NCBI GenBank assembly: GCA_949841325.1 | Contig: CATKZK010000002.1 | Location: forward strand, 663-64,662 | DNA: 64,000 nt | Direction: 5' to 3' | Source: an uncultured Bacilli bacterium | GTDB lineage: Bacteria; Bacillota_I; Bacilli_A; RF39; UBA660 | Shown here: in pieces, positions 29,966 through 61,237 of the stretch | Layout of the letters: each line of letters opens with the position of its first letter | Numbering within the stretch: position 1 is the stretch's first letter | Notes under the pieces: generated by a model | Databases searched by the model: none | Told to the model about the DNA's origin: nothing | The model's input: the letters and a program-made list of their open reading frames with translations, nothing else | Program-made: the position numbers and the translations under genes

Positions 29966-30064
29966 AAGAGAATGTGAAAAAATAAGGTATCTTTCTTTTT
30001 GAAGAGAATAAAATATCTTCTGAAGGGAAAAGAGTGAAAATCGTGAAATAAAGCTAGAAAAAGA

Positions 30065-30093: not shown

Positions 30094-30128
30094 AACCTTG
30101 CTTTAGAGATGTGGAGGTGTCTAAGACT

Positions 30129-30251
30129 ATGAAGAGAACTTTTCAACCAAATAATCGTAAAAAAGCAAAAAAACATGGTTTCTTTGCACGTAAAAATACT
30201 AAAATATTAAAATCTAGAAGAGCAAAAGGACGTAAAGTTATATGTAAGTAA
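30129..30251 (+). CDS. rpmH: 50S ribosomal protein L34
   Basis: Not in the track (below the length cutoff). SD GGAGGTG, then [40 protein letters not shown] (40 aa). Confidence 0.92.
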
Positions 30252-30294
30252 GCCACCCTGTGGCTTTTTATTGTAAAAGAAAGTAGGGGAGCTT

Positions 30295-30615
30295 GTGAAA
30301 AAGATAGAAGTCGTAAAAGACCAGCGTGAATTTGATTCTATTATTAAAACTTCACCATTTGAAAAAAATAAATATTTTCTTTTATATAATAAGGAAAGCG
30401 ATGTGAATTTTCCAAGATTTGGAATTGCTGTTGGTACCAAAGTAGGAAATGCAGTAACTCGCAATCGCTTAAAAAGACAAATAAGGGCAATTATAGACAA
30501 GAATAAAAAGTTATTTTCAAATCACAGGGATTATATTATAATAGTAAAAAGGAATTGTTTAGAGATTAGTTTTCATGAAATGGAACAAAATCTAATCAGT
30601 TTAATTAAAGGGTGA
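30295..30615 (+). CDS. rnpA: Ribonuclease P protein component
   Basis: GTG start; FGIAVGTKVGNAVTRNRLKRQIR RNR-motif region; follows rpmH. Confidence 0.88.
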   Translation: MKKIEVVKDQREFDSIIKTSPFEKNKYFLLYNKESDVNFPRFGIAVGTKVGNAVTRNRLKRQIRAIIDKNKKLFSNHRDYIIIVKRNCLEISFHEMEQNLISLIKG

Positions 30616-30619
30616 TCAA

Positions 30620-45382: not shown

Positions 45383-47176
45383 ATGATAAATGAAATGATG
45401 GAAAATTGTTTGTTCAACAGTTCTAATAGTAAAATAAAAAGAAAGATGTGTGTGGTTTTAGTAGGTCTTGGTCCTCATGCTAAGAGAATTTATTTGCCTT
45501 ATTTAAAAAAACATAGAATTCCTTTGCAATTAGTAGTAGAAATAGAATCAAAAGAAGAGGAGACTAAAAATATTTTATTTGAAAGTGGATTTAAAAATAC
45601 ACAAATATTAACAATAAAAGATAAGGACAAAGATAAAGTCCATCTTCCTAATTATTTAAAACAACAACTTAGTCTTCTTTGTAAACTATTTGAAATCAAC
45701 TATATGATTGTATCGACAGAACCAAAAGCTCATTATATGTATATAGAATTTGCCTTGTTACAAAGAATTCCTGTATTGACAGATAAACCAATCACTGTTA
45801 TGAAAAAGATGAAAACAATTTCCCAAATTGATAAAGTAAAAAAAGAATATCAATATTTAGCTAATTTATCCAAAAAATATAAAACCCCTTGTATGATGAT
45901 GTGTCAAAGACAATACCATAAAGGCTATGAATATGTAAAGAAGTTATTAAATGAAGTTGTCAGTCAATATGAGATTCCCATTACTTATGTCGATATATAT
46001 CACTGTGATGGAGCATGGGAGTTTCCACATGATATGGAAAAAGAAAATCATCCATATAAGTATGGCTATGGAAAATTATTTCACAGTGGGTATCACTTTA
46101 TTAATCTCTTAAGTGAATTTATAAAAATCAATAATCAATTACCTCACGCAAAACAAATCAAAAAGGGAAGAATCTATGGTAATTATCTGACACCAAATGA
46201 TGAAGTCAATATTATGAATATAGATGATTATAAAAGAATATTTAAAGATCAAAAGATTCCCCTATATTATGAAGAAAATAAGCATCCAAAATTTTCTCGA
46301 TATGGTGAAAAGAATTATTACGGAATAATAGAATATAAAAACGATAAAAATCAAACTATAATGAATGTCAATCTAAATCTATTACATAATGGATTTTCTA
46401 GAAGAGGTTGGATGGAAACAAGAGATTTTTATAAAAAAAATGGTCGTGTAAGACATGAAAGATTAAATATTCAAGTAGGACCACTTTTAAACATTCAAGT
46501 TCACAGTTATCAATCTAAGGAAATTAAAGATAGACAAGATTTAAAAAGTGAAGAAATGAGTGGTGGACTTGAACACTTTGATATTGAAATCTATCGAAAT
46601 GCGGATATTATTGGTGGTAAGCCTTATGAAAAAATAACATTAGGTGATTTATATACGGAAAAAGAAAAGAAGAACATGACGGGGTATAATGAATTAGCGC
46701 GAGAAAAGACATTATCAGAATTTTTTAAATGTAATTATGAAAAGGGAAATCTTTTAGATCAAGCACTAGCAATAGATATTTTAGTTAGTTGTGCAAAAGG
46801 GCTTGTTTATGCTTATAACAAAATAGATCATGTTGAAGAAATTTATAAACTAGACAAGCATGCTACATCTATTTCATTAACAGAATTAAAAAAATATGCT
46901 TTTAAATATAAGGGTACAAAAGAATGTGTAAAGATGGAAGTATTTGAAGGATACAAATATGAGTATGGTATCATCATGAATCATATTAAAGAAAATAAAC
47001 ATTATGAAGTATACCTTTATATGAAAGAGAAAAATCTTGTCGTTAGTTGTCTATTTAATCGATTGATAAAATCCAAAATTTTCGCTTCTCTTTATTACAA
47101 TATTTTAAAGAGACTAATGAAACTAGATCGTCCAAATCTTCTCTATTCTCTTCTCAAATATAAAAAAACACAATAA
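45383..47176 (+). CDS. Gfo/Idh/MocA-like oxidoreductase-fold protein with long C-terminal extension (597 aa)
   Basis: N-terminal Rossmann-like pattern VVLVGLGPHAKRIYLPYL...MIVSTEPKAHYMYIEFALLQRIPVLTDKPIT (compare GxGxxxxxxhlP...stP...H...al..g..Vl.EKP). The central FHSGYHFINLL resembles the family's C-terminal domain. The last roughly 130 aa are unassigned. Confidence 0.55.
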   Translation: MINEMMENCLFNSSNSKIKRKMCVVLVGLGPHAKRIYLPYLKKHRIPLQLVVEIESKEEETKNILFESGFKNTQILTIKDKDKDKVHLPNYLKQQLSLLCKLFEINYMIVSTEPKAHYMYIEFALLQRIPVLTDKPITVMKKMKTISQIDKVKKEYQYLANLSKKYKTPCMMMCQRQYHKGYEYVKKLLNEVVSQYEIPITYVDIYHCDGAWEFPHDMEKENHPYKYGYGKLFHSGYHFINLLSEFIKINNQLPHAKQIKKGRIYGNYLTPNDEVNIMNIDDYKRIFKDQKIPLYYEENKHPKFSRYGEKNYYGIIEYKNDKNQTIMNVNLNLLHNGFSRRGWMETRDFYKKNGRVRHERLNIQVGPLLNIQVHSYQSKEIKDRQDLKSEEMSGGLEHFDIEIYRNADIIGGKPYEKITLGDLYTEKEKKNMTGYNELAREKTLSEFFKCNYEKGNLLDQALAIDILVSCAKGLVYAYNKIDHVEEIYKLDKHATSISLTELKKYAFKYKGTKECVKMEVFEGYKYEYGIIMNHIKENKHYEVYLYMKEKNLVVSCLFNRLIKSKIFASLYYNILKRLMKLDRPNLLYSLLKYKKTQ

Positions 47177-47203: not shown

Positions 47204-47232
47204 TGTACAAGCAATAGGAACACCCTTATAAT
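47204..47232 (+). promoter_or_regulatory. Candidate promoter of the tail-collar/RHS operon
   Basis: TGTACA, 17 nt, perfect TATAAT. A roughly 120-nt leader follows, containing the mini-ORF MKKRR (47290-47307, SD GGAGG). Confidence 0.4.
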
Positions 47233-47345
47233 GTAATAAAATGGACGAATTGTGAAAAACAGTTGGTTCATTTTTTTTGGAGGTGCACCATGAAGAAACG
47301 ACGATAGAAACAGAAAAAGACAGTTAAGGGCTGTTATTTTTTATG

Positions 47346-47415
47346 GAAAGAAGGAAAAAATATGAATGAAGAAAAAATAAGAAATTGCTTTACAGAAGTA
47401 GAAAATGGAGTGAAT
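47346..47415 (+). repeat. Direct repeat copy A (RBS + first 18 codons of tail-collar gene)
   Basis: About 88-90 percent identical to 55234-55304. The shared string is GAAAGAAGGAAAA..ATATGAATGAAGAAAAAATAAGAAATTG(C/T)TTTACAGAAGTAGAA. Confidence 0.85.
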
Positions 47416-47979
47416 GCGGAATTTAATAAAGTAACGATGAAATGTTTAAATTCAAGTAACAATGCATTTAGTATGGATTGTGAAGGAAACTTAGTCGTAA
47501 ATTCTATCAGGACAAGAGAAGGAAGTGGTGGTTTAACATTTGATGACATCTATCCAATAGGAAGTATTTATATGAGCATTCAAAATGAGAATCCAACTCA
47601 ACTATTTGGTGGAACTTGGGAATCTATTAAAGATAAGTTTTTGCTATCATCAGGTGATACTTATGAAGTAGGAGTAGAAGGAGGAGAGGCAGAACATACC
47701 TTATCTATAAATGAAATTCCAAGTCATAGTCATACCCCATCAGATGCAGGAAGAAACTGGGTATATGGAACAGATCAAGTGGGAAGAAGACAAATTGCAA
47801 CAGGAAATACTGGACTATACGTACCTGTTGCTGCAGATGGAATAAATGGCTATAAATGGGGAGGGACATCTGACACAGGTGGAAATAAATCACATAACAA
47901 TATGCCTCTATACTTAACAGTAAATATGTGGAAAAGAGTTGCTAAAAAAAAGGAACTCTTTTTTTATGAAAGGAAATGA
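47362..47979 (+). CDS. Phage tail-collar domain protein (MdpB/tail-fibre-like), copy 1
   Basis: IGSIYMS...PTQLFGGTWESIKDKFLL...GGEAEHTLSINEIPSHSH...GGNKSHNNMPLYLTVNMWKRVA matches the tail-collar pattern (P..fGGtW..i..rFl...TGGe..HTLt..EmPsH.H...aHnNmPPY..v..W.R). The stop TGA (47977-47979) lies 1 nt before the RHS ATG. Confidence 0.7.
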   Translation: MNEEKIRNCFTEVENGVNAEFNKVTMKCLNSSNNAFSMDCEGNLVVNSIRTREGSGGLTFDDIYPIGSIYMSIQNENPTQLFGGTWESIKDKFLLSSGDTYEVGVEGGEAEHTLSINEIPSHSHTPSDAGRNWVYGTDQVGRRQIATGNTGLYVPVAADGINGYKWGGTSDTGGNKSHNNMPLYLTVNMWKRVAKKKELFFYERK

Positions 47980-47980
47980 C

Positions 47981-50900
47981 ATGAAAGAATTAGTCAACTT
48001 AAGAAAAGAAAAAGAAAAACATTATCTAAATGATGATGGTACAATTACAGCATATCTATATGATGAAGCTATTCATTACTTAGATAAAGAAACATATGAA
48101 GAAATCGATAATACGATTATTGAAAAAGAAAAATACTATATGAATCATAAAAATGATTTTCAAGTCGAGTTTTATAAAGAACACTTTTTAGTAAGTGTAA
48201 GTACAAACAAGTATTATATGAATATCTTATTAGAAAATAGTAATAAACTGCAAAGAGTAGAGACAAAAGGAAATAAGATTACATTTAAAGAAATAATAAA
48301 AGATGTTGATTTAGAGTATGAAATTATTGGAAGAAAATTAAAAGAAACTTTTAAACTTAATCAGAAAGGATTAAAAAATGTAACATTTAAGATTAATACG
48401 AATTTAGAATTAGAAAAAAGTGATCAAGAAATAATAGCAAAAAAAGATGGAGTAGAACATTATCGATTTGACGCACCATTCTTAAAAGATGCTAAGAATA
48501 ATTATTTCTATAATTGTGAAATAAGTCTAGAAAAAAAAGATAACTGTTATATACTTACATATCTATTAGATGAAGATTGGTTAGAAGAAGCCGTCTATCC
48601 AGTCATTATTGATCCTACAATAACAAATAAAAGAAATACAGTAACAGACACTTATATTTACTTATCTGCAAATGGCAAGGATACGACTGAAACGAGACAT
48701 ACGAAACCATTTATTAAAGTAGGTGTAGGAGATAATACTGTATATCGTAGTTTAGTAAAATTTGAACTACCTCATATTGGAACATCCGCACAAGTCATCC
48801 ATGCAGAAGCCTATTTTAGTAGCCATGGAGATGACCGATATCTTCTTGGAGAAGAATATACATCTATGGATAAAATTGCTACACTTCATAGAATGACAAA
48901 AGATTGGGATGAAGCTACTGCCAACTGGGATAATTTAGCAGAAGATTATGATCCATTTGTTGAAAATTATATGACATTAAGTAGAACTGAAGTAAGACCA
49001 TATCCTGAAAATAAACTTATTCTTTCTATTATGCCATTTGATATTACAAATATTGTAAAAAAATGGTATTCAGGAACACCAAACTATGGACTTATGATGA
49101 AATGGTATGAGGAAGTATATGATGCAAATTGCAAAGAATACACTCTCTATTCATCAAATAATACAGAGTCAGTTGAAGGATCTAATCCTAGACCTCTTTT
49201 AATGATTCAGTATCGTTATCAAAATGGAATATTAGATTATATGAGTTATCAAACAACTTCATTAAGTACAGTCAATAGTTCTATTAATAACTATAATGGA
49301 AATGTAACAAATGTAATTCCTATTAATCAATTAGCAGGAAGTGACTTAGCATTAAATTTAATTTACAATACAAGCAGTGTTCTTCTAAATGAAGACTTTA
49401 AAATTGCCAAAGGATGGAAATTAAACTATGATGAGTATGTTGCTAAAGAGATTATAGATGATATTATTTACTACAAATATGTAGGTGGTACAGGAACCAT
49501 TCATTATTTCTATGAAAAGACATTTGAAAATAAAGAAAAAGTGTGGATTGATGAAGATGGTCTTGGCTTAAGTTTAGATATAGAAAAGAATGATGATGGA
49601 ACAATCGAAAGATTTATAATTATTTCAAAAACAGGAATTAAATCTACATATCTAAAAGAAAATAATTACTATCTTTCAAGGATAGACTATGTTGATAATA
49701 GTTACTTACAATTAGTAAGAGATGCAAGTAATAGAATAATCAGTGTAAAGGATGAAAAAGATAACATCATTTCTATTAGCTATGCCTCAAATGGAATTCA
49801 ATTTACAAGTGATTCAGAAACCACTTCTATTACTATTGAAAATAATTTAATAAAAACAATTCATCTTAATATTGGAGATATTTCTATTAACTATAACACA
49901 AATGATATTATCACAAAAATTATAGATGTTACAGGAATTAGTTTATCTTATGAATACTATGATGGAATTCCTTATCGTTTAAAAAAGATTACCAATATTG
50001 GTTTAAATGATGAAATTGGAAAATTTAAAACATTTGAATATCATTTTAATTCTACAACAGTTACTGATAATAAGAATAACAAGATGAGATATACATTCAA
50101 TAATCTAGGAAATACAATTGGAACAGTTTTATTAAGTAAAGATGGAACTCTTAAAAATTCATTTGGTTTTTCTGATCAATATGTTGATGAACTTAAATTA
50201 CCTGAATCAAATAAACCATTTGCTACTTCCGTTCCTATAAAATACATAGAGGAAACAGAGACTATAGAATATGGAAAAGAAAATCTTATGCCAAATGGTG
50301 ACTTTGAATCTGATGAAACAAATATCTTTACTTCTTATGGAAATGAGATTACAAATGAAACAAGTTATACAGGATGTCACTCAATTAAATTAAATAGTGG
50401 ATCTGTTGGAAGTATGCTTTTAGAAACTGGTCCACATTTATTAACTGCCTACTTTAAGAATGAAAAGCCAATTACTTTAGAGATGCAAGCATCAGGGACA
50501 TCATCACCAATTTTCTATAATCCTATTACTATTCCTGCACATCAAGAATTTACTAAAGTTGAAATTCCATTAAAAGTATATGAATCTTATGAATCAGTTG
50601 AATTCTATTTTACCGTAGAAGATAATGAAATTGCTTATGTTGATCATGTATCTCTTTATAAAGGAGAATATGTCAATCTAGTGAAGAACTCCAGTTTTAA
50701 TAATCTTGATGAAATGACAGGACTTATAGATTGGACAGTTGTGGGTTCTAATAATGATACAGGAGAAGAATTGAGTGATTGTTATGATATTGTGACATTA
50801 GATTCTTATGAAAAAGCATTAAAGCTCAAAAGTGTATTAAATGGAAGTGTTGTGGCCTATCAATCCGTTCCTATAACAGGCAAAAAAGGAGATGTCTATA

Positions 50901-53900
50901 CATTATCTTTTTGGTATAAAAATGAAGGTGTATTAGATCCTGGAATGATGGCTGATTTCTTTGGTAATTTTGCGCAGTTAGAATTTGTAAGTCCAAATGA
51001 CGAAGAATTTGGTCATGGAACTGATAATATTATTCTTAATTATCATGCTGATGAATGGCAATATTTTAGTCAGACTTATGTAGCCCTAAATGATTATGAA
51101 TCTATTTTCTTAACGATTATAAGTTCAATGGAAGCTAACAATCTATATGTCACCAATTTCTCTCTTATCAAAAATCTAGGTTCTTACTTTTATGAATATG
51201 ATGAATTTGGAAATATCATATCAACTTATGATATAACGAACCAAACAAATCAATTCAAATATGATCAAAATAACCAGCTAATTGCCTCTTTTAATCCCAA
51301 AGGAAATCACTTCTATTATGAATATGATAATGTCATTACAGATCGATTACTAAGAGGAACTAGTCCAACGGGAATAACTAACGAAATAAAATATGACACC
51401 TTTGGAAACCCTATTAAAACGATTATTAAAAGTACAAATCCACAAGGTAAAGAAATAAATGGAGATTATTATATTCGATTAAAGGGGACAAATAAGTATG
51501 TCACAGTTAATCCAATAGATAAGTCTTTAAAATCAAGTGAGGATACTTGTAATCATTATGCGTTTACATTTACGAATACAAATAACTTATATGTTATAAG
51601 ACCAACTATACTTTCAAATTATAGTTTACATACTGCAGATAATACTGTACATTGTTCAAAAGGAACACCATCTAATTTTACACTTGAACATAAAGAAAAT
51701 GGATCTTATTATATTAAAGTTGCAAATCTATATTTAAAAGAAGAAAATAATAACATTGTATTATCCTCTTTAGTAGAAAATGATGTTCATTATGAATTTT
51801 ATTTAGAAGATATTCATTCAAAAGAATATATAGAAGAAAATGCACATTATACAGAAGATGGAAGATTTATAAAAGAGACAATAGATGCTTTAGGGGAAAA
51901 AACAGTTTATGATATAGATCCAAATACAGGCCTTATTTCAACAATAACAAATGCCAATAATCAAACTACTTCATATACTTATAATCAGAAAAAAGAACTT
52001 ACAAAAGTAGAAACTGATGATAAGATAATCGAGTACAATTATGACAATAGAATGTTAAAGTCTATTCAAAGTGGAAATAAGGCATTTACTTTTGATTATG
52101 ACAATTTCCAAAAGACGAATTCTGTTAAGATTAATAACCAAAGTTTAATCACTAATGAGTATGAAGAAAATGATGGAAAATTAAAGAAGTCAACTTATGG
52201 TAATGGTGCAACTGTAGAATATACTTATGATGATTTTGATAGAATGAATACGGTTAAAAAAGGAAATAAAACATACAGTTATCATTATAATTATCAAGGA
52301 TTAATGGATTCAATCTATAATGAAACAAGTCAAGCTTTAAAATTTCAATATGATTATGCTCAAAGAGTAGCAAATATTATAATTGATAATGATTTGTCTA
52401 TTGAGTATGAGTATGATGTAAATAGCAATGTCTCAAAAGAAAAACAAGTATTTAAATCAATGGAACATACAATTGAATATACCTATAATGAAGATGACTC
52501 TATTATCAAACTAAAGGTAGATAATCAAGAAATCAATTATGAATATGATGCAATTGGAAGATTAAAGGTAAGAACAATTAATGGTGAGCTTCCAGTTGAA
52601 TATACATATAAGAGAGTAGGCAATAAAACATCTCTAATTATAGATAAAATAAAAATAGGTGAAGACATCTATCAATTTACATATGATAATCTATATAACA
52701 TAACGAAAATAACAAAAAATGAAGAAGTAGTAAATGAATACATCTATGATAATAGAAATCAACTTATAAGTGATAACAACTATGAAATCAATAGAAACTA
52801 TATCTACACTTATAATGAAGAAGGGAATATCAGCAAAAGAGAAATCAAAGATATTGAAACCAATACAACAATAAGTAGGGATACATTTGAATATACCAAT
52901 ACTTTATGGGAAGATCAACTAACTAAAGTAAATGAAGAAACGATTAAATATGACGCAATAGGGAATCCACTTACTATAGGAAATAAAGTATTAACATGGA
53001 ATAACGGAAGAGAACTAACCTCTTATCAAGATCATAATCTAGAAGTAGACTATACCTATAATGTAGCAGGACTAAGAACAGAGAAAAAAGTAAATGGAGT
53101 AAAAACGAAGTATTACTTGGAAGATGAAGACATCTTAGTTGAAGAAAGAGAAGGAGATGTGTTATACTATATACGAGATGATAGTGGAGAATTAGTAGGT
53201 GTGATGCGAAATGGAGAAATCTACTATTATCAAAAGAACTGTCAAGGAGACATAACAGGAATCTATGATAGTAGCTATAAGTTAATTGTTAAGTATAGAT
53301 ATGATGCGTATGGGAATGTATTATCTATAGAAGATAATGAAGGAAAAGAAATAACAGACAATAATCATATAGGAAGGTTAAACCCATACAGATATAGAAG
53401 TTACTACTATGACGAAGAGACAAATCTATATTACTTAAAGAGTAGATACTACAATCCATTATGGGGTAGATTTATTAATGCAGATTGTATACTAGGAGGA
53501 AATAGTAAACATTTAGGATACAACTTATTTGTATACGCCAATAACAATCCAATAACCTATATAGATGATTCAGGAGATTTTGCAATTACAGGAACAATAG
53601 TTGGTGCAGTTATAGGTTCCGCTGTTTTATTGGGATATGGAGCAGTAATTGCAACAAAGAATCTTCTTACAGCGTCAGCACCTATTATTACAAATGGTGT
53701 CGATGCTTTAAATACTGCAGTTTATAAAGCAAAAGAAAGAGCTGCAGCCGCAGCATCTGCATCTATAGCCGCAACTAAAGCAGCCAAAGCAAAAAAGAAC
53801 TCGTCAAAAAAGAAGGACAAAGAGAAATATACTGTATATAAATTAGTCGATTCATCTGGGAAAGCTCAATATGTTGGTATGACAAGTGATGAAAAAAAAC

Positions 53901-54157
53901 GTGAGCAAGCTCATAAAAGTAATCCATTTCGAAAAGAATTAACTTTTGAAAGAGAAAAATGGGACATCGAAACAAAATTGGAAGCAAGAGTATGGGAACA
54001 ATACTATATAGAATACTATCAAACGTTAAATCGAAATCCTTTAAATCCGATCAGTAATCAAATCAACAGTATTAGACCTGGATCAGAAAAATATAATAGG
54101 TATGTTGAACCATTAAAGAGAAATATGTATGGAGAAGTGTATGTAGGAGGAGAATAA
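47981..54157 (+). CDS. RHS/YD-repeat polymorphic toxin with C-terminal GIY-YIG (URI-type) nuclease domain
   Basis: About 2,058 aa. Hydrophilic N-terminus with no signal peptide, LXG or PAAR. DNRLRE-like domain (YRSLVKFELPHI...LHRMTKDWDEATANWDNL). Two CBM4/9-like modules (NLMPNGDFESDE, NLVKNSSFNN). A possible beta-trefoil insert. Many YD repeats (YxYDxxGN). RHS core end PYRYRSYYYDEETNLYYLKSRYYNPLWGRFINAD...YANNNPITYIDDSGDF. Then the CT region. The start could also be 47966 or the TTG at 47939. Confidence 0.9.
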   Translation: MKELVNLRKEKEKHYLNDDGTITAYLYDEAIHYLDKETYEEIDNTIIEKEKYYMNHKNDFQVEFYKEHFLVSVSTNKYYMNILLENSNKLQRVETKGNKITFKEIIKDVDLEYEIIGRKLKETFKLNQKGLKNVTFKINTNLELEKSDQEIIAKKDGVEHYRFDAPFLKDAKNNYFYNCEISLEKKDNCYILTYLLDEDWLEEAVYPVIIDPTITNKRNTVTDTYIYLSANGKDTTETRHTKPFIKVGVGDNTVYRSLVKFELPHIGTSAQVIHAEAYFSSHGDDRYLLGEEYTSMDKIATLHRMTKDWDEATANWDNLAEDYDPFVENYMTLSRTEVRPYPENKLILSIMPFDITNIVKKWYSGTPNYGLMMKWYEEVYDANCKEYTLYSSNNTESVEGSNPRPLLMIQYRYQNGILDYMSYQTTSLSTVNSSINNYNGNVTNVIPINQLAGSDLALNLIYNTSSVLLNEDFKIAKGWKLNYDEYVAKEIIDDIIYYKYVGGTGTIHYFYEKTFENKEKVWIDEDGLGLSLDIEKNDDGTIERFIIISKTGIKSTYLKENNYYLSRIDYVDNSYLQLVRDASNRIISVKDEKDNIISISYASNGIQFTSDSETTSITIENNLIKTIHLNIGDISINYNTNDIITKIIDVTGISLSYEYYDGIPYRLKKITNIGLNDEIGKFKTFEYHFNSTTVTDNKNNKMRYTFNNLGNTIGTVLLSKDGTLKNSFGFSDQYVDELKLPESNKPFATSVPIKYIEETETIEYGKENLMPNGDFESDETNIFTSYGNEITNETSYTGCHSIKLNSGSVGSMLLETGPHLLTAYFKNEKPITLEMQASGTSSPIFYNPITIPAHQEFTKVEIPLKVYESYESVEFYFTVEDNEIAYVDHVSLYKGEYVNLVKNSSFNNLDEMTGLIDWTVVGSNNDTGEELSDCYDIVTLDSYEKALKLKSVLNGSVVAYQSVPITGKKGDVYTLSFWYKNEGVLDPGMMADFFGNFAQLEFVSPNDEEFGHGTDNIILNYHADEWQYFSQTYVALNDYESIFLTIISSMEANNLYVTNFSLIKNLGSYFYEYDEFGNIISTYDITNQTNQFKYDQNNQLIASFNPKGNHFYYEYDNVITDRLLRGTSPTGITNEIKYDTFGNPIKTIIKSTNPQGKEINGDYYIRLKGTNKYVTVNPIDKSLKSSEDTCNHYAFTFTNTNNLYVIRPTILSNYSLHTADNTVHCSKGTPSNFTLEHKENGSYYIKVANLYLKEENNNIVLSSLVENDVHYEFYLEDIHSKEYIEENAHYTEDGRFIKETIDALGEKTVYDIDPNTGLISTITNANNQTTSYTYNQKKELTKVETDDKIIEYNYDNRMLKSIQSGNKAFTFDYDNFQKTNSVKINNQSLITNEYEENDGKLKKSTYGNGATVEYTYDDFDRMNTVKKGNKTYSYHYNYQGLMDSIYNETSQALKFQYDYAQRVANIIIDNDLSIEYEYDVNSNVSKEKQVFKSMEHTIEYTYNEDDSIIKLKVDNQEINYEYDAIGRLKVRTINGELPVEYTYKRVGNKTSLIIDKIKIGEDIYQFTYDNLYNITKITKNEEVVNEYIYDNRNQLISDNNYEINRNYIYTYNEEGNISKREIKDIETNTTISRDTFEYTNTLWEDQLTKVNEETIKYDAIGNPLTIGNKVLTWNNGRELTSYQDHNLEVDYTYNVAGLRTEKKVNGVKTKYYLEDEDILVEEREGDVLYYIRDDSGELVGVMRNGEIYYYQKNCQGDITGIYDSSYKLIVKYRYDAYGNVLSIEDNEGKEITDNNHIGRLNPYRYRSYYYDEETNLYYLKSRYYNPLWGRFINADCILGGNSKHLGYNLFVYANNNPITYIDDSGDFAITGTIVGAVIGSAVLLGYGAVIATKNLLTASAPIITNGVDALNTAVYKAKERAAAAASASIAATKAAKAKKNSSKKKDKEKYTVYKLVDSSGKAQYVGMTSDEKKREQAHKSNPFRKELTFEREKWDIETKLEARVWEQYYIEYYQTLNRNPLNPISNQINSIRPGSEKYNRYVEPLKRNMYGEVYVGGE

Positions 54158-54158
54158 A

Positions 54159-55199
54159 ATGACTAAAAGTCCAACAATAAAAAACTGTGAAGCAGGAGAT
54201 GTATTTGCTTATAAAATAGAACAGGATGAAGAATATAAGGGACGATATCTTTTATATATTCGGTGTATAGTAGATGAGTATGAAAAGGAGTATCAGGATG
54301 AAAGTGATGATAGAGAGGACACACTTTTAACATATAGAGTAAAACTAACAAATGATTGTAAAGTTCCATCAAGCCAAAAAGAACTAGATGAATTGCCTTA
54401 TATAAAGCTACGATATTTCACATATGAAAGACGTCATTTTCCATTATCAGGAAAGAAGACATATGAACAACTATTAGAAGAACGAAAAGATATCAAGTTT
54501 TATCCAGATGAATATGGGTACTTGTATTGCTATATTACTGATATTTATAAGCCAAAGAATATTAAGAAGTTCGAGTATCTTGGAAATTATAACTTAAAAA
54601 CCCCAATAAAAGAATATCTTCCATTTACATATATGCATGTAGAAATGAGCTCTTTTAAATATATTGAAGAAAATATGCTGAAGTATTATAGGGACTTCAA
54701 TTTAAAGCAGGCATACTGCTATACAAAAGAGGGAAATAAAGAAATAAGAGAAAATGCGCGTAGAGACGTCGAATTTTCATTGAGATTGGAAAAACTAATG
54801 AATTCAGGGAAAATAAAATTTGATATAAGGAATCGAAAATTAAATTATTGGAGTGAATCGCTTTATGGAAATGATGTAGCCGAGGATTTAAGAAGTGATT
54901 ATAAAAAATTCTATAATAGGAGTGTAAAAAATGGAACAAGTAATCAAGAAATGATAGATGAATTGATCGACTATTATGAAGAATATTTAGAAGATCCCCT
55001 TGATGAGCCAATCTTTTGGATGATACTAGCAAATGAACAAATGAAGAAAAAAGAATTAACCAAAGAACAAAAAGAAAAAGGGTTAAAAGCTATTGAAGAG
55101 GATTTAGAAAATTGGAAAGATGAAGAAGTATTTAATGACAGAAAAGCTGTATTAAATAAATTAAAGAAAAAGTTAGAAACATATGAGTGTAAAGAGTGA
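54159..55199 (+). CDS. Putative cognate immunity protein of the RHS toxin
   Basis: ATG lies 1 nt after the RHS stop, with SD GGAGGAG inside the toxin gene's end. 346 aa, cytoplasmic, acidic. The C-terminal YWSESLYGNDVAEDL...FWMILANEQ resembles DUF4259-type immunity domains (from memory). The assignment rests mainly on position. Confidence 0.55.
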   Translation: MTKSPTIKNCEAGDVFAYKIEQDEEYKGRYLLYIRCIVDEYEKEYQDESDDREDTLLTYRVKLTNDCKVPSSQKELDELPYIKLRYFTYERRHFPLSGKKTYEQLLEERKDIKFYPDEYGYLYCYITDIYKPKNIKKFEYLGNYNLKTPIKEYLPFTYMHVEMSSFKYIEENMLKYYRDFNLKQAYCYTKEGNKEIRENARRDVEFSLRLEKLMNSGKIKFDIRNRKLNYWSESLYGNDVAEDLRSDYKKFYNRSVKNGTSNQEMIDELIDYYEEYLEDPLDEPIFWMILANEQMKKKELTKEQKEKGLKAIEEDLENWKDEEVFNDRKAVLNKLKKKLETYECKE

Positions 55200-55225
55200 T
55201 AACCTATCACTCTTTTACTTTTATC
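55191..55225 (+). terminator. Intrinsic terminator after the immunity gene
   Basis: AAAGAGTGATA-acc-TATCACTCTTT (11-bp stem overlapping the stop codon) followed by a T-rich tract. Confidence 0.65.
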
Positions 55226-55233
55226 AAATAAAA

Positions 55234-55304
55234 GAAAGAAGGAAAAGAATATGAATGAAGAAAAAATAAGAAATTGTTTTACAGAAGTAGAAGAAGGGGT
55301 AAAT
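55234..55304 (+). repeat. Direct repeat copy B (RBS + first 18 codons of second tail-collar gene)
   Basis: See copy A at 47346-47415. Confidence 0.85.
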
Positions 55305-55678
55305 ATTGATGTTATCTATCCCCTTGGAATGAAGTAAATCCAGGAACATTTCTAAATGGAATATGGAAAAGAATTCAAAATCAATTTTTAATGGCAGCAA
55401 GTTCAACTTATCCAGTAGGAACAACAGGAGGAACTATAGGACATCACCATACTTTAAATAATGCCTATGCAAGAATTGGATGTGCTCAAGGAGTCATGTA
55501 TTACAACCGTAAATATGGAACTGCAATACCATATAATCAGACAATAGATAGCCCTAAAATGTCTCATACAGATAGACAAGTGAATCAGAATGTAGCAACC
55601 TCTCTTGATGGAAGAACAGATAATACAAGTCTATTACCTCCATATTTAGCAGTTTCAATTTTGAAAAGAGTTGCCTAA
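55251..55678 (+). pseudogene. Tail-collar domain paralog, copy 2, frameshifted and N-terminally shortened
   Basis: ATG 55251 gives MNEEKIRNCFTEVEEGVNIDVIYPLGMK then a stop (55335-55337). The homologous continuation (WNEVNPGTFLNGIWKRIQNQFL...GTTGG..HHHTL...LPPYLAVSILKRVA) is in another frame, open from 55310. The switch point lies near the CCCC run at 55320-55323. Confidence 0.6.
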
Positions 55679-55679
55679 T

Positions 55680-56311
55680 ATGAGTTATAAGTTTAAGAAT
55701 GTTATTTTAAAGCATTTTAAAGAAAAAAGACAATTAAAGTAACTTCTGATTATGGGAAGAGAAAGTATTATAATAAAATTACTAAAAAATATGTAACAAG
55801 CAATCATAAGGGAATCGATTTAATAGGTGGAAAGACCATTATTGCTGTAGAAGATGGAACTGTTACTTCTGTTAAAAAGAATGTTAAAGGATATAGTGAA
55901 AAATATTCATCTGGTAATTATGTTACAATCGCACATAATAACAATATTTCTACAGTATATTGTCATATGAAATATGGCTCTATTACCTTAAAGAAAAATA
56001 GTATTGTCAAAAAGGGAGATTATCTAGGTATTATAGGATCAACAGGGAAATCAACAGGAAAACATCTTCATTTTGCTGTAAAGAAAGGAAAAGCGTATGT
56101 GAATCCAAAAGATTATTTACTAGGTGATAAAAAAATACAAGAAACTTTAGTTAATGAATTCTTTTATATTGTTAAAAAAGGAGATACATTATCTAAGATT
56201 GCAAAAAAGTTTCAAACTACTTGGAAGAAAATTTATCAAGATAATCTATCAACTATTGGCAATAATCCTAATCTTATTAAAGTAGGTCAGGAATTGAGGA
56301 TAAGGAAGTGA
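55680..56311 (+). pseudogene. M23 peptidase + LysM peptidoglycan hydrolase (endolysin-like), split by a frameshift in an A6 run
   Basis: ATG 55680 gives MSYKFKNVILKHFKEKRQLK then a stop (55740). The catalytic frame opens at 55721: VTSDYGKRKYY...NHKGIDL (HxxxD)...GNYVTIAHNNNISTVYCHM...GSTGKSTGKHLHFAV (HxH), plus C-terminal LysM YIVKKGDTLSKIAKKF...IKVGQELRI. It has no start codon before the M at 55967. One extra A in A6 (55723-55728) would join the two frames. Confidence 0.7.
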
Positions 56312-56315
56312 TTCG

Positions 56316-56711
56316 ATGGAAAAGGTAGAAATGGGAATAAACTGTTTGGGCTTAAGTTTTTTTACTTATCTTATAGGGGGATTTGATGCTTTATTTAATG
56401 CTTTACTTATCTTTATCGTATTGGATTATTTAACTGGTTTATGTAAGGGGATTTATAAGAAGAAACTAAATAGTAAGAAAAGTATGAAAGGAATCATTAA
56501 AAAAATTGGCTATTTATGTGTTGTTGTTTTGGCAACAATATTTGGGTATATTGTTCATGATGAAAGCATGGCTATTAGAACATTAACTCTTTATTTCTTT
56601 ATTGCTAATGAGGCCATTTCCATTTTAGAAAACTGGGCAATAATCGGATTACCCCTTCCAAAAAAGCTAGTTGAAGTATTTAATGATTTAAAAGAAGATG
56701 AAAAGTATTGA
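56316..56711 (+). CDS. Phage holin, family 4_1 (toxin secretion/phage lysis holin; TcdE-type)
   Basis: 131 aa with three hydrophobic segments. The signature-like pattern is LIFIVLDYLTGLCKGIYKKKLNSKKSMKGIIKKIGYL...FFIANEAISILENWAIIGLPLP. Confidence 0.8.
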   Translation: MEKVEMGINCLGLSFFTYLIGGFDALFNALLIFIVLDYLTGLCKGIYKKKLNSKKSMKGIIKKIGYLCVVVLATIFGYIVHDESMAIRTLTLYFFIANEAISILENWAIIGLPLPKKLVEVFNDLKEDEKY

Positions 56712-56736
56712 CATATGGCGACAAAGTCTCTATTAT
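56708..56736 (+). promoter_or_regulatory. Sigma-A-type promoter of the ArpU-like regulator gene
   Basis: TTGACA (56708-56713, overlapping the holin stop), exact 17-nt spacer, TATTAT (56731-56736). Confidence 0.6.
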
Positions 56737-56770
56737 AGTTTACTCATAGAAGGTCCACTGAGGTGTAGAA

Positions 56771-57277
56771 ATGGAAGATACTTTAAATTTTCAAATACTT
56801 TCAAATTTGCCAAGTGAAGTTATTAAAATGGCTAAGAATAATGAATTTCTTACTTTATTAAATGAACCATTAATTTCCAAGTATTATGATGCAAATTTAA
56901 GAAAAGAACTTAAAGCACTATTCACTCGATTTAATGATATTAAATTCTTTTATAAAGTGAATGACTCTTATTCATTAAAAGCAAACCAAATAAGAATTGA
57001 TAAAGTGAATGGCTCTTCTCTTCATCCGAATCAAATATTAAATATGGTAGGAAGAAAGATAGATGAAGAACAGTTTGTAGAAGTGATGTATTATCGAATA
57101 TTAAATTTGTCGATAAAATTAACTTATCAAGAAGCTTTATACTTTATTAAATACTTCTTTAGTGATACAACAGAAGAAGAAATCAGTGAAATTTTAGCGA
57201 TTAGTCGTACAAATTTACAGAAGATAAAAAAGAGTTGTTTAGTAAAAGTATATTTAGAAGTTAGTGATTTGATATAG
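56771..57277 (+). CDS. ArpU-family / sigma-70 region-4-like phage late transcriptional regulator
   Basis: 168 aa. The C-terminal LTYQEALYFIKYFFSDTTEEEISEILAISRTNLQKIKKSCLVKV looks like a region-4 HTH, as in ArpU-type phage regulators. The assignment is from pattern memory only. Confidence 0.5.
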   Translation: MEDTLNFQILSNLPSEVIKMAKNNEFLTLLNEPLISKYYDANLRKELKALFTRFNDIKFFYKVNDSYSLKANQIRIDKVNGSSLHPNQILNMVGRKIDEEQFVEVMYYRILNLSIKLTYQEALYFIKYFFSDTTEEEISEILAISRTNLQKIKKSCLVKVYLEVSDLI

Positions 57278-57303
57278 GGGAATTCCCCTATATCTTTTTT
57301 TTA
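57272..57303. terminator. Bidirectional intrinsic terminator between convergent genes
   Basis: ATATAGGGGAATTCCCCTATAT perfect palindrome followed by T9, with an A/T run on the other side. Confidence 0.75.
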
Positions 57304-57882
57304 TTTTAAACTATATGTTTTTTCTTTTGGTAGGATTATTTCTTTTCCATGTAATTTTATATGCATTTTAAATTCATCATCTGTACAGTTAAAAGGGGGA
57401 GTGGGATATTCATATATTTTAATATATTGTATCTCTTTTTTACTGACTTTTTGTTGTTTATTGTGTTCAATATGTAGTTCCTTTTGAAAAAGAATTGCCT
57501 CTTCATAAGAGGAAAAAGGAAAAATTCCTCTCTTATAGTCAAAATAACAGTAGTGATTCATTTTATGGAATAATAAATAAGCATGACAAGTGAAATTTAC
57601 TTTATAGGGACAATCAAAAGTAATAAACATCGTTTTGACTTCATAGCCATGTTCTAAAAACCAAGTTCTTTCAAATTCTGTAACGTCAAAACAATGTCCA
57701 TAACCTACTTGTAATAATCTTTCAGTAGAAGATAACCTCCATTTCGTCTTACAACCTATTTGGAACGCTTGCATATCAAAACTACCATATACCCTTCCTT
57801 CATCATCGACAAAGCCGTATTGAATATTTTGATACATAAATTCTAATAATTGTCTAGGTGTTTTTATCTCTTCATACTCCAT
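57301..57882 (-). CDS. Hypothetical protein, possible transglutaminase-like/papain-like fold
   Basis: Start MEYEEIKTPRQLL after SD GGAGG (internal start chosen). GYGHCFDVTEFERTWFLEHGYEV...CHAYLLF suggests a Cys...His arrangement. Weak assignment. Confidence 0.4.
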   Translation of the reverse strand: MEYEEIKTPRQLLEFMYQNIQYGFVDDEGRVYGSFDMQAFQIGCKTKWRLSSTERLLQVGYGHCFDVTEFERTWFLEHGYEVKTMFITFDCPYKVNFTCHAYLLFHKMNHYCYFDYKRGIFPFSSYEEAILFQKELHIEHNKQQKVSKKEIQYIKIYEYPTPPFNCTDDEFKMHIKLHGKEIILPKEKTYSLK

Positions 57883-57973
57883 GAATCTTCCTCCAATTAA
57901 AATGTATTTTAGCACTAATTCTCTCTTTATAAAAGTATAATTCATGGTATAATAAAAATAAGAAGGTGAATGA

Positions 57974-59617: not shown

Positions 59618-60553
59618 ATGAAAAAGATAATGACCCTAATTGTAGTACCAATAGTAGTAATCGGACTCTATTGGTTTTTTTCTTATTTTAATCAAAGTTT
59701 TAAAGATGATATGGTTGTCATTAATGAAATAACGGATTCGACAGAAAAGCAATCGATTAAAGAAAATACATCAACAGAAATAAAGACTTCTAAGATAGCA
59801 GAAGAAAAGCAAAGCTATCCAGATATTGAAGAATACATTGTAGGTGTTGTCGCTTGTGAGATGCCTGCTTTATATGAAGAGGAAGCTTTAAAAGCCCAAG
59901 CAGTAGCTGCTCGTACCTTTGCCCAATATCGATTAGCAAAAAATCCTAATATAAAGCTAGAAAATGAAACAGACCAATGTTATATCGATACAAGTAAGCA
60001 AAGAGAAAAATGGGGAAGCGACTATGAGGTATATTATGAAAAAATCAAAAAAGCGGTCGCTTCAGTAAAGAATGTTATTATGACTCAAAATAATGAATTG
60101 TTTAAATCTTTTTACTTTTCAACATCTAATGGCGTAACTGAAAGTAGTCTAGCTGTATTTGGCGAAGGAAATATAAAATCAGTAGAGTCTTCTTGGGATA
60201 AAGAGAGTAAGAATTATGAAGTCCAAACAGAATTTTTAGAAGAAGAACTAACCACTTTACTTGGAATCTTTAATACAATTGAAATCAAAGAACGAGATAC
60301 AAATCATCATGTAACGAAAGTGAGTGTTGATAATAAAGAAATGAGTGGTATTGAATTTCGCAAGTTGTTATCCCTTAGAAGTACTGATTTTGAAATTACG
60401 AAAACGGATGATCACTATCTCATCACAACTTATGGCTATGGACATGGAGTAGGAATGAGCCAATATGGTGCTAATTATTTAGCAAAATCGGGTCAAACAT
60501 ATGAGAGCATTTTAAAATATTATTATAATGATATTAATTTGAAAACTTATTAG
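59618..60553 (+). CDS. spoIID: Stage II sporulation protein D (lytic transglycosylase)
   Basis: N-terminal TM, EALKAQAVAARTFA, FYFSTSNGVTES, GHGVGMSQYGA motifs. Confidence 0.87.
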   Translation: MKKIMTLIVVPIVVIGLYWFFSYFNQSFKDDMVVINEITDSTEKQSIKENTSTEIKTSKIAEEKQSYPDIEEYIVGVVACEMPALYEEEALKAQAVAARTFAQYRLAKNPNIKLENETDQCYIDTSKQREKWGSDYEVYYEKIKKAVASVKNVIMTQNNELFKSFYFSTSNGVTESSLAVFGEGNIKSVESSWDKESKNYEVQTEFLEEELTTLLGIFNTIEIKERDTNHHVTKVSVDNKEMSGIEFRKLLSLRSTDFEITKTDDHYLITTYGYGHGVGMSQYGANYLAKSGQTYESILKYYYNDINLKTY

Positions 60554-60601: not shown

Positions 60602-61237
60602 ATGAAAAAGAAATTGTACTTAAAAAATTGGGTCATTACGACAGGTATTGCAGTTATTGTAGTTTCAGTGGTTGCTTTAACATCTCTTGTTTCCTCTTCT
60701 ATTTTTTCATCTCTTAACACAGATAATAATTCTTATGTATTAAGAGACTTAGCTTCAACGTATATTCCCGTTAATACAGAAGTAGAAAATAAAGCAAGCA
60801 AACCTTATACAGCAGAGAGTGTAAGTGTACACACGAATTATTATGATGTAAAGAAAGAAAAAGAGGTTCAAGAAAAATCTTTAATTCTTTATGAGAATAC
60901 ATACATGCCAAATACGGGAATTCTTTATAGTGATAAAGAAGCGTTCGATGTTGTTGCTGTTTATGAAGGCGAAGTCTTAAGTATTACAGAAGATGATATC
61001 TTTGGTTCTATTATTGAAATAAAACATACCAATAACATTACTTCTAAATATTCTAGTGTAAAAGATCCAAAAGTATCTGTTGGAGAGACCGTTAATAAAG
61101 GGGAAGTCATTGCCTCAAGTGGAAAAAACAAAATTGTAAGTGAAACTGAAAACATGCTCCTATTTGAATTATTATATAATGGTACTAATGTTAATCCAGA
61201 CGAATATTACGATAAAGATTTTAATGAAATGAGATAA
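60602..61237 (+). CDS. Membrane-anchored degenerate LytM/M23-domain protein (SpoIIQ-like)
   Basis: N-terminal TM. The C-terminal M23-like fold (VVAVYEGEVLSI...IIEIKHTNNITSKYSSV...VGETVNKGEVIASSG) lacks the HxxxD/HxH metal ligands, as in SpoIIQ. Confidence 0.55.
   Translation: MKKKLYLKNWVITTGIAVIVVSVVALTSLVSSSIFSSLNTDNNSYVLRDLASTYIPVNTEVENKASKPYTAESVSVHTNYYDVKKEKEVQEKSLILYENTYMPNTGILYSDKEAFDVVAVYEGEVLSITEDDIFGSIIEIKHTNNITSKYSSVKDPKVSVGETVNKGEVIASSGKNKIVSETENMLLFELLYNGTNVNPDEYYDKDFNEMR

Follow-up and report, generated by a model that had tools for sequence, protein, structure and literature searches.

How do RHS toxins of more than 200 kDa cross the membrane and wall of a Gram-positive cell? 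This is an acknowledged open question, made explicit for WapA (PMC12704120). Here, we discuss a locus that raises it again: a cassette of seven genes in a 64,000-nucleotide (nt) stretch of DNA ("the window") from an uncultured Bacilli bacterium (assembly GCA_949841325.1, contig CATKZK010000002.1, positions 663 to 64,662). The cassette encodes a giant RHS protein, a putative immunity protein, two versions of a small phage tail-collar protein ("collar1" and "collar2"), an M23+LysM wall hydrolase, a holin, and a regulator (Table 1). An earlier note on this DNA proposed that the locus is a Gram-positive system in which an RHS toxin is released through lysis. The outline of that proposal is supported, in that the toxin family lacks export signals and is linked to lysis genes; however, the hydrolase is dead in this strain, and lysis genes are not universal among relatives. 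The pairing of the collar with RHS is the invariant core of the family; the lysis genes are not. Our preferred explanation, which we hold with middling confidence, is that the cassette may be the domesticated remnant of a temperate siphophage late operon, and that it releases a receptor-guided RHS bacteriocin by lysis.

The comparisons described here draw on relatives of the RHS protein. When one genome per GTDB species was scanned with a profile, 443 stretches matching the RHS N-terminus (amino acids [aa] 1-470) were confirmed. The best 80 of the 443 all come from uncultured gut Bacilli or from bins labelled "Tenericutes"; source bins among these 80 are Mycoplasma sp. CAG:776, Clostridium sp. 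CAG:1000, and Acholeplasma sp. CAG:878. We examined 85 related loci, in which the RHS N-terminus is 33-45% identical to that of the window; their open reading frames (ORFs) were called and clustered, and cluster representatives were annotated. Linkage percentages refer to the 45 loci with a complete RHS gene and at least 4 kb on each flank ("fully flanked" loci). Loci are identified by L numbers: L089-L096 are contigs whose holin protein is identical to that of the window, and L097-L099 are contigs from IMG/VR. Proteins of the window were searched against Pfam, NCBIfam, and PHROG.

An RHS toxin family without export signals

The RHS protein of the window has 2058 aa and, as had been noticed from its hydrophilic N-terminus, no hydrophobic leader. 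Across the family, the N-terminus is both hydrophilic and conserved (M1, E3, R8, K13, and the motif "EKHFLxxDG"). We screened for export signals using the hydropathy maximum over the first 45 aa, a measure by which the positive controls were hydrophobic in 13/13 and 15/15 cases. None of 82 RHS proteins and none of 15 CW_7/LysM endolysins has a hydrophobic N-terminus. Among M23 proteins, 2/21 do, and the single case among 92 collars is probably a mis-called start. The RHS family is without a Sec signal throughout.

Signals for other export routes are likewise lacking. Pfam and NCBIfam searches found no match to PAAR, VgrG, LPXTG, LysM, or SLH in the RHS protein of the window. There are no type VI secretion system (T6SS) genes in the window or in related loci, and no WXG100-like, EssC, PAAR, or VgrG genes are found among the recurrent neighbors in the 85 loci. 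The first 470 aa of RHS are all-beta in an AlphaFold2 model (pLDDT 83), which excludes a helical targeting domain of the LXG/WXG type. The view that RHS has no Sec signal, LXG domain, PAAR/VgrG association, or wall anchor is upheld by the hydropathy screen, the all-beta model, and the lack of family matches. We therefore rejected several familiar identities for the protein: a type VIIb secretion system (T7SSb) substrate with an LXG/WXG domain, given the all-beta N-terminus and the lack of a WXG-like neighbor family; a T6SS Rhs effector, given the absence of PAAR/VgrG matches and of a T6SS context in the window or related loci; and a Sec-exported, wall-associated RHS protein of the WapA type, given the low hydropathy in 82/82 proteins and the absence of LysM, SLH, and LPXTG. 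A CBM96 domain, as discussed below, is present.

The N-terminal half of RHS has counterparts in phages. In Foldseek comparisons, aa ~215-410 resemble the CBM96 structures 7vbo and 8wab (TM 0.64-0.67), and the two-domain module at the N-terminus matches a 1379-aa siphovirus protein (A0A8S5MN12; TMq 0.73, E 1e-28). At the sequence level, aa 1-411 align with the first 385 aa of gp18 from Bacillus phage PBC1 (24% identity, E 9e-13), a virion protein whose gene directly follows that for the tape measure. Homologs of the N-terminus (aa 1-470) carry the name "DNRLRE domain". Being a phage-type module for adhesion to cell surfaces, the N-terminal half fits an extracellular role on target cells. A further region with carbohydrate-binding character (Table 1) also matches NF048003 (3e-4) and NTTRR-F1 (2.8e-4), with all of its matches near or below the curated cut-offs. 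One "phage" record, MT835902, matches 88% of RHS; it is unannotated and was not used.

The remainder of RHS is built like that of a polymorphic toxin, with a YD shell enclosing a probable GIY-YIG nuclease. An Rhs-associated core spans aa 1774-1865 and has at its end a cleavage-type (aspartyl autoproteolysis) motif, PITYIDDSG. Solved Rhs structures in the PDB (8h8a, 7q97, and 8qja) match RHS with E values as good as 9.5e-27. The earlier designation as an RHS-GIY-YIG nuclease is thus sound for the RHS shell and core, but the GIY-YIG match is sub-threshold (E 6.9e-4; 20.3 bits, under the cut-off of 22.6). A PDB sequence search with the toxin C-terminus gave nothing significant.

The 346-aa protein encoded directly downstream has no family match in Pfam or NCBIfam. 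In 6/6 loci that carry the toxin C-terminus of the window, whether on RHS or as an orphan, a member of the same 346-aa family is found directly 3' of it, which supports the assignment of a toxin-immunity pair. Orphan toxin and immunity arrays occur in relatives; displaced modules of this kind are characteristic of loci for polymorphic toxins. One strain carries a telling arrangement at L090:1-3850. There, RHS ends in another C-terminus, and an immunity gene for this one (345 aa) comes next. Behind it are an orphan piece (175 aa) of the toxin known from the window and then the 346-aa immunity gene of the window; the identical holin is on the same contig. This arrangement points to C-terminal displacement among strains with an identical holin.

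The collar is the constant partner of RHS

In 84 of the 85 loci, a collar gene is located immediately 5' of RHS and in the same orientation; the gap between the two has a median of 43 nt. The collar itself is a small protein of the receptor-binding type, with a Gp10_C/tail-collar head and a conserved 58-aa N-terminal segment. A conservation map of the small collars shows this conserved N-terminus, a core of the form IYPIGSIY...FGGTWE, and a variable middle. The collar matches 174 phage records, with antireceptors the best among them. Its head shares 44-46% identity with the C-terminus of antireceptors from the L. delbrueckii phages Ld3 and LL-Ku, and the full-length collar shares 29% identity with the end of gp55, which is the last of the tail proteins in S. 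pyogenes phage T12.

The two parts of the collar relate differently to RHS. Over 53 pairs, distances between collar N-termini co-vary with those between RHS N-terminal halves (rho 0.37-0.45). The collar head is uncoupled from RHS (rho 0.03-0.15), despite being the part closer to the RHS gene. An anchor that co-varies and a head that does not are what one would expect of a receptor-binding protein whose anchor is specific to its partner and whose head is freely exchanged. This suggests that the collar may dock on RHS through its conserved N-terminus.

Two variations on the pairing deserve mention. L097, from IMG/VR, is one of very few exceptions: at 1-2318, a regulator gene of the same type as that in the window ("Sig2", see below) is directly 5' of RHS, with no collar between them; the contig ends ~650 bp further upstream. 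In 23 loci (e.g., L009:9606-9971), a gene for a 121-aa coiled-coil protein without a family match is positioned between the collar and RHS. This gene is not in the window. Its product could be an assembly chaperone.

In the window, the toxin-immunity pair had been described as bracketed by two collar paralogs, which could act as adaptors or receptor binders. Both genes are present, but the second is a duplicated and decayed copy: its 5' 61 nt are 90% identical to collar1, and its 3' 38 nt are 76% identical. Collar2 has a 19-bp deletion relative to L089 that is common to the window and L090. A full-length second collar is found in L092, L095, and L096, where it is ~80% identical to the window in that stretch. 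The second collar sits at a canonical phage junction, where a receptor-binding protein is followed by lysis genes, and this explains the bracketing. We therefore rejected a two-adaptor design.

Lysis genes are often, but not always, linked to RHS

The cassette was said to contain an M23+LysM hydrolase and a TcdE-family holin. Matches to Peptidase_M23, LysM, Phage_holin_4_1, and TIGR01593 agree with both assignments. An identical holin protein is encoded on the 22 contigs that were read and is indexed in 33 blocks of the collection. More broadly, holin-like genes are found in 36 of the 85 loci and hydrolase genes in 34. Every one of the 52 holin-like genes is co-oriented with RHS; 44 are within 3 kb, and their median distance is 1.7 kb. 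For lysis genes in general, the distance is about 1.5 kb (median 1.4-1.7 kb). Among fully flanked loci, a holin-like and/or hydrolase gene is on the RHS strand in 28/45 (62%), and both are in 22/45 (49%). The recurrent same-strand lysis families are Phage_holin_4_1, M23 peptidases, and CW_7+LysM endolysins; small membrane proteins of the phage families phrog_4105, 1863, 13256, and 443 are also recurrent. In two loci, L017 and L031, the gene order of the window is repeated (collar, RHS with the same toxin, immunity, M23, holin, Sig2), with an RHS N-terminus only 39-45% identical to that of the window.

The earlier note had suggested asking whether RHS genes of this kind co-occur with collar, lysis, and regulator genes beyond chance. 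Applied to the 85 loci, this comparison gives a clear answer for the collar (84/85), and same-strand lysis genes and regulators are far above chance. However, lysis genes are missing in 17/45 fully flanked loci, so their presence is not universal.

The lysis cassette of the window itself is damaged. The M23+LysM gene is frameshifted near 55733-55740, with the result that the HxxxD zinc ligand is split from the HxH motif. The lesion is a 1-nt deletion in an A-run, as judged against the intact 210-aa allele of L092, L095, and L096. Those three contigs encode the identical holin, and the hydrolase is intact in many other relatives as well. The same frameshift is present in at least five independent assemblies (L089-L091, L093, and L094), which means that it is neither a sequencing error nor phase variation. 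Both of these explanations were rejected for the further reason that the intact allele differs by many substitutions and belongs to another lineage. The hydrolase of the window is a true, lineage-specific pseudogene, and the cassette of this strain is degraded. A caution given earlier, that the frameshifted genes might indicate decay or phase variation, is thus correct as to decay, with the M23 lesion common to at least five assemblies, but not as to phase variation. With the hydrolase and collar2 both pseudogenes here, release would need the holin plus other autolysins, or would be impaired.

A leader hairpin and a sigma-like regulator

The toxin operon starts with a candidate promoter and, immediately after it, a terminator-like hairpin. 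The -10 box and the bases that follow it (TATAATGTAATAAAATG, 47227-47243) are kept in relatives, and the motif TATAATGnAGTAAAATG is found 5' of the collar operon or the Sig2 operon in the window, L008, L017, L022, L031, and L076. RNA folding gives the hairpin a stability of -15.3 kcal/mol (z = -5.4), with 0/200 shuffled sequences as stable. It is kept in six diverged loci, with four pairs changed on both sides (i.e., compensatory changes). Mini-ORFs of the MKRR type are in the same place in L008 and L017, and the layout as a whole (-10 region, hairpin, mini-ORF) is conserved in L008, L017, L022, L031, and L076. Where a promoter leads straight into a terminator, transcription should need an antitermination-like or special initiation factor, and the protein with sigma-like features encoded at the end of the cassette would be the obvious candidate for a factor acting on this leader.

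That protein had been labelled an ArpU-like late regulator. The label does not survive: at E <= 0.01, the regulator has no match to an ArpU family model in NCBIfam, Pfam, or PHROG, and its matches are of the sigma-70 region-4 type only, so we call it "sigma region-4-like" instead. These matches are themselves weak, with E values of 1.5e-4 for TIGR02937 (21.4 vs 42.9 bits) and 0.02 for Sigma70_r4 (14.8 vs 24.1 bits). A Sig2 profile aligns with the Sigma70_r4_2 regulators of related loci (hhalign, probability 86%, E 5e-6), and a ~160-aa counterpart in 30 related loci passes the Sigma70_r4_2 threshold (33.5 vs 25.7 bits). Sigma region 2 was not detected in regulators of the Sig2 or the Sigma70_r4_2 type. 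A gene of one type or the other is present in 34 loci, usually just 5' of the collar; in L017 and L031, the Sig2 gene is in the same position as in the window.

The TTGACA-17-TATTAT site reported in front of the regulator is present. The total number of promoter-like sites is no greater than in shuffled sequence, so this site alone is no proof of a promoter. The lysis genes of the window have no promoter of their own and are sited behind the terminator that follows the immunity gene. In other loci, the collar and lysis operons share upstream sequences: an element resembling GTCTAGTGAAAGTCCAGTA, together with a -10-like box, is 5' of both the collar and the holin operons in L025, L040, and L064, and GTATATGGA-N19-TATAAT is 5' of both the collar and M23 in L017.

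Two further observations concern regulation in relatives. In many of them, the pemK RNA motif of Rfam (RF02913), which is a candidate for cis-regulation, occurs in the leader that separates the sigma-like gene from the collar-RHS operon. The motif is found at L014:904-961, where it scores 47.5 bits (gathering score 34.8) and follows a long, conserved non-coding stretch, and at L007:2287-2360 and L083:1105-1178; its core, AATGATACTTC, is located 50-214 nt 5' of the collar in 15 loci. The motif is not in the window. The shorter GTCTAGTGAAAGTCCAGTA element resembles the second hairpin of the pemK motif, and the pemK "RNA motif" may be tied to small sigma-like regulators. In addition, a triad of genes recurs upstream in ~12 loci (including L072:1-2400, L058, and L053): one encodes an HTH_3 regulator that has a transmembrane segment, another a secreted protein of 250 aa whose signal peptide is clear, and the third is the sigma-like gene. 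This triad looks like a signal-sensing module that feeds into the toxin operon.

Phage origin of the module

In four loci from metagenome-assembled genomes (L033, L039, L046, and L055) and in the IMG/VR contigs L098 and L099, the collar-RHS pair comes directly after a phage tail and lysis module. The order there is tape measure, DUF6711 (Dit-like), Tal-like, a 650-aa receptor-binding protein, a small membrane protein, a holin-like gene, endolysin, small collar, and RHS, with the 650-aa receptor-binding protein carrying the same collar head. Phage T12 has the same order: the collar head in the last tail protein, then holin, lysin, and the SpeA toxin as cargo. Other loci have housekeeping flanks (IleRS and a penicillin-binding protein [PBP]) and only the compact cassette, and most have no recognized tail genes within 10 kb. 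A position after the endolysin in phage contigs is the classic "moron" position and indicates a prophage origin; judging from these gene orders, the module clearly descends from prophage cargo. The possibility, raised earlier, that the locus is a random prophage remnant is therefore partly correct as far as origin is concerned.

Layout of the cassette and its surroundings

All seven cassette genes are on the plus strand, as the earlier note had placed them, between an oxidoreductase-like gene (45383-47176) and a minus-strand gene of unknown function (57301-57945). Their order, with the associated signals, is collar1, RHS, immunity gene, terminator, collar2 remnant, M23+LysM, holin, promoter-like site, regulator, and terminator.

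Table 1. Genes, domains, and candidate regulatory signals of the cassette (positions within the window)
Feature	Position	Strand	Description
Toxin-operon candidate promoter	47204-47232	+	TGTACA-17-TATAAT; 10/12 in consensus scan
Leader hairpin and U8 run	47238-47278	+	Terminator-like attenuator, promoter-proximal
Mini-ORF (MKKRR, then stop)	47290-47307	+	GGAGGTG ribosome-binding site; after the hairpin
Collar1	47362-47979	+	Pfam Gp10_C 7e-19, 69.6 bits vs cut-off 27; PHROG tail proteins; no signal peptide
RHS toxin	47981-54157	+	2058 aa; N-terminus MKELVNLRKEKEKHYLNDDG
RHS, adhesion module	47981-49210	+	Beta-rich domain aa 1-205 and CBM96/DNRLRE domain aa ~215-410
RHS, further carbohydrate-binding-like region	50675-51160	+	CBM_4_9 1.8e-5/spike-fibre-like, then weak RicinB 0.046
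RHS, RHS/YD-repeat shell	51188-53575	+	RHS_repeat 2.4e-11, YD_repeat 1.1e-10, Rhs_assc_core 8.4e-17
RHS, variable C-terminal toxin region	53576-54157	+	Hydrophobic glycine-zipper-like stretch, then probable GIY-YIG aa ~1949-2015
Putative immunity protein	54159-55199	+	346 aa; starts 1 nt past the RHS stop codon
Intrinsic terminator	55191-55215	+	11-bp stem and T-run; between immunity and lysis genes
Collar2 pseudogene	55252-55678	+	Degraded collar1 paralog
M23+LysM wall hydrolase	55680-56311	+	Endolysin-type, no signal peptide; Peptidase_M23 and LysM on 3' ORF
Holin	56316-56711	+	Intact; Phage_holin_4_1 7.5e-38; TIGR01593 holin_tox_secr 1.2e-25, 89.9 bits vs 40.2
Promoter-like site	56708-56736	+	TTGACA-17-TATTAT; 11/12, best of the region; 5' of regulator
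Regulator	56771-57277	+	168 aa; C-terminal sigma-70 region-4-like helix-turn-helix ("Sig2" type)
Closing terminator	57271-57294	+	10-bp stem with 5 GC pairs, T-run

The window is a 64-kb segment of a low-GC, Bacilli-type chromosome that spans the replication origin. The flanks of the cassette are murA, a LysR regulator, and the oxidoreductase-like gene upstream, and ATP-grasp, RpiB, SpoIID, M23, RecG, and SecG downstream. The remaining genes that were checked in the window are housekeeping genes (Mfd, DnaX, MetRS, PBP1, DnaN, and others), and no secretion-system genes were found in the checked parts, in line with the earlier statement that the window has no dedicated secretion genes. It had also been stated that the locus is not an intact prophage, and this stands: there are no capsid, terminase, portal, tape-measure, tail, or integrase genes beside the cassette in the window. 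A search for attachment sites or long flanking repeats that might mark an island found only the collar1/collar2 repeats, and no Rfam motifs were found in the window's cassette.

Several other features of the window were noted. The sign of the GC skew flips near 30 kb (~28000-31000), by dnaA (28275-29633, minus strand) and dnaN, with gyrB/gyrA close by; the chromosomal replication origin is inside the window. The gene directly upstream of the cassette (45383-47176) encodes a 597-aa protein with a weak GFO_IDH_MocA Rossmann match. This protein, or a free-standing ~106-aa ORF that matches only its C-terminal end, is encoded directly 5' of the collar leader in six loci: the window, L008 (7793-8113), L017, L022, L031, and L075. 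It may be a member of the cassette, or the arrangement may reflect synteny only. The bacterial small SRP RNA (RF00169, 59 bits) is at 19801-19890 on the minus strand. Homologs of the sporulation protease YabG (5647-6411, minus strand) and of SpoIID (59618-60553, plus strand) are present, as is a second, intact M23 peptidase (60602-61237, plus strand), i.e., there are further wall hydrolases close to the cassette. Together, these last three genes hint at a sporulation-capable or sporulation-derived lineage.

Possible explanations for the locus

In the scheme that we infer from these genes, four steps are predicted: binding of the collar to RHS, lysis-dependent release, action of the regulator on its target, and nuclease activity of the toxin. 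The cargo would be an RHS YD shell around a probable GIY-YIG nuclease, with an immunity gene alongside and an N-terminal half that adheres to cell surfaces. The collar would be a receptor-binding head that attaches to RHS via its conserved N-terminal segment, making a "tailless" targeted toxin. RHS, the collar, and the M23/LysM hydrolase, all of which lack signals, would exit once the holin permeabilizes the membrane and the hydrolase opens the wall, either from a sacrificed subpopulation or via local opening. The sigma-like regulator would switch on the promoter whose transcript starts with the terminator hairpin. Finally, the terminator after the immunity gene might keep expression of the lysis genes low, in the style of colicin operons.

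Several observations weigh against this scheme. In the window, M23 is frameshifted and collar2 is decayed, and with the M23 lesion present in at least five assemblies, the lineage evidently tolerates the loss. No recognizable lysis gene is found in 38% (17/45) of fully flanked loci. Many of the "holin-like" genes encode small membrane proteins from phage families without proven function, and the genes of related loci are simple ORF calls. The co-variation of collar and RHS is modest, with phylogeny left in. The linkage of lysis genes to RHS could be a prophage leftover rather than functional coupling. 

This last point is the essence of the main competing explanation, in which the locus is the decaying end of a prophage with a toxin "moron"; the holin, hydrolase, collar2, and regulator would be non-functional leftovers, and the toxin would be exported by another route or by autolysis. 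The two pseudogenes in the cassette and the fully flanked loci without lysis genes keep this explanation alive. It also accommodates the finding that collar-RHS directly follows the endolysin both in phage contigs and in four loci that resemble prophages, and the same canonical order in phage T12 with SpeA as cargo. It accounts less well for the many loci in which holin and endolysin genes have stayed intact between housekeeping flanks, with no recognized tail genes and with RHS N-termini that are only 33-45% identical. Nor does it predict that holin-like genes are on the RHS strand in 52/52 cases, that the upstream element of the toxin operon is also found before lysis genes in four loci, or that the holin and regulator are intact here, with an identical holin on >20 contigs. 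On balance, we regard the decaying-prophage explanation as unlikely, though it is the strongest of the alternatives.

A second alternative is that RHS and the collar are exported by a dedicated system encoded elsewhere (T7SSb or unknown), with the lysis neighbors irrelevant. The inspected part of the genome is 64 kb, many relatives have no nearby lysis genes, and there is a precedent in a Listeria Rhs toxin that has no Sec signal and is linked to the T7SS component EssC (PMC10327511; PMC12704120). Against this, the N-terminus is all-beta with no helical LXG/WXG-type domain; the recurrent neighbors in the 85 loci are phage lysis genes and regulators, with no WXG100-like, EssC, PAAR, or VgrG genes among them. 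We consider such a system improbable. More improbable still, and barely credible in our view, is that the collar and RHS help to build a phage or tailocin particle, as a virion-borne toxin or adhesin. It is true that the N-terminal module of RHS is common to the PBC1 virion protein gp18 and the 1379-aa siphovirus protein, and that the collar is the head of a receptor-binding protein. However, in phage contexts, the pair follows the lysis genes and is outside the structural module, most loci have no recognized tail genes within 10 kb, and the immunity gene and orphan toxin/immunity arrays are typical of polymorphic toxins. The signal-less N-terminus, the post-lysis position, the immunity gene, and the orphan arrays together make both a distant secretion system and a virion role less likely.

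A broader claim can be entertained, which we put forward tentatively and with less confidence than the release scheme itself. The collar and RHS may represent a previously unrecognized class of "tailless", phage-derived bacteriocins. A presumably trimeric head would dock, via the 58-aa adaptor, on the adhesion module of the RHS cage and aim the toxin at specific wall glycans of rival strains, with heads swapped by recombination in the manner of phage host-range determinants. The genes would form a late-operon-like unit under sigma- or antiterminator-like control exerted at a promoter that runs directly into a terminator, release by holin and endolysin would be altruistic, and the class would be widespread in uncultured gut Bacilli (>440 GTDB stretches).

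Comparison with known systems

The elements of the proposed scheme have precedents. Holin- and endolysin-dependent release of large toxins is known for C. difficile TcdE/TcdL and Serratia ChiWXYZ. For the lysis cassette of YenTc in Yersinia entomophaga, release by lysis of a subpopulation has been shown (PMC10847048). As in the window, these "type 10" systems have a large signal-less toxin beside a phage-derived holin, a signal-less wall hydrolase, and a dedicated regulator. YenTc shares with the window a toxin that contains an RHS cocoon, and the window holin belongs to the family that contains C. difficile TcdE. In contrast to the type 10 systems, the locus described here is Gram-positive, has no spanin, and has an obligatory partner gene of the receptor-binding type. 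Lysis genes are found in only ~60% of relatives, and the hydrolase is broken here. The presence of an immunity gene makes other bacteria the target, which is a further difference from the type 10 systems.

Colicin operons offer a second parallel. In them, as in the cassette, a toxin gene is followed by an immunity gene and then by a lysis function, and a terminator between the last two would limit lysis expression. Colicins are also signal-less toxins with a receptor-binding part, released as a fraction of the producers dies. Unlike colicin operons, the cassette has a phage holin and endolysin rather than a lipoprotein, a 230-kDa RHS cage, and a separate phage-type receptor binder; it is chromosomal, and SOS control is not evident.

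Among RHS toxins, WapA of B. subtilis and S. suis is similar in having an RHS shell, a polymorphic C-terminal toxin, a downstream immunity gene, and a DNRLRE/CBM96 domain in the N-terminal region (PMC12704120). WapA, however, has a Sec signal, LysM wall-binding repeats, and wall anchoring, whereas the family described here has neither signal nor repeats and instead has a collar partner and phage lysis neighbors. MuF toxins are polymorphic toxins of Firmicutes prophages that lack a classical signal and whose release is tied to the phage cycle (Jamet et al. 2017, PMC5576092). They differ in carrying a head-morphogenesis domain as a fusion, and capsids presumably package them; RHS is sited after lysis genes, mostly without phage structural genes. 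The collar, for its part, resembles phage antireceptors (Ld3, LL-Ku, and the last tail protein of T12) in having a conserved N-terminal anchor and a variable head. Unlike them, it is a stand-alone protein of ~200 aa rather than the tip of a long tail protein, and it is paired with a toxin rather than a baseplate.

Lysis-dependent release of large toxins, Gram-positive RHS toxins of the WapA type, and phage-borne MuF toxins are therefore already known. In a search that did not cover subscription journals, we found no paper connecting either tail-collar proteins or holins to RHS toxins of Gram-positive bacteria, and neither "collar" nor "holin" occurs in the text of Zhang et al. 2012. In the literature that we found, there is no description of a combination like this one, in which a signal-less RHS protein has a phage receptor-binding protein as its obligatory partner and occurs with phage lysis genes and regulators of the sigma-like kind, and which is conserved over a large clade. 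The impression recorded in the earlier note, that this gene combination is new, agrees with our search.

Implications

For one large clade, the collar-RHS family offers a testable answer to the question of how giant RHS toxins leave a Gram-positive cell: by means of phage lysis genes and a receptor-binding partner, with no secretion system. If this is true, release that depends on lysis, as in type 10 systems and colicins, extends to interbacterial RHS toxins in Gram-positive bacteria, and phage receptor-binding proteins have acquired a new use. The modular design, in which a receptor-binding head is combined with a toxin cage, may also be of interest for engineering. For the poorly known, uncultured gut Bacilli that carry these genes, the collar-RHS pair would be a major weapon.

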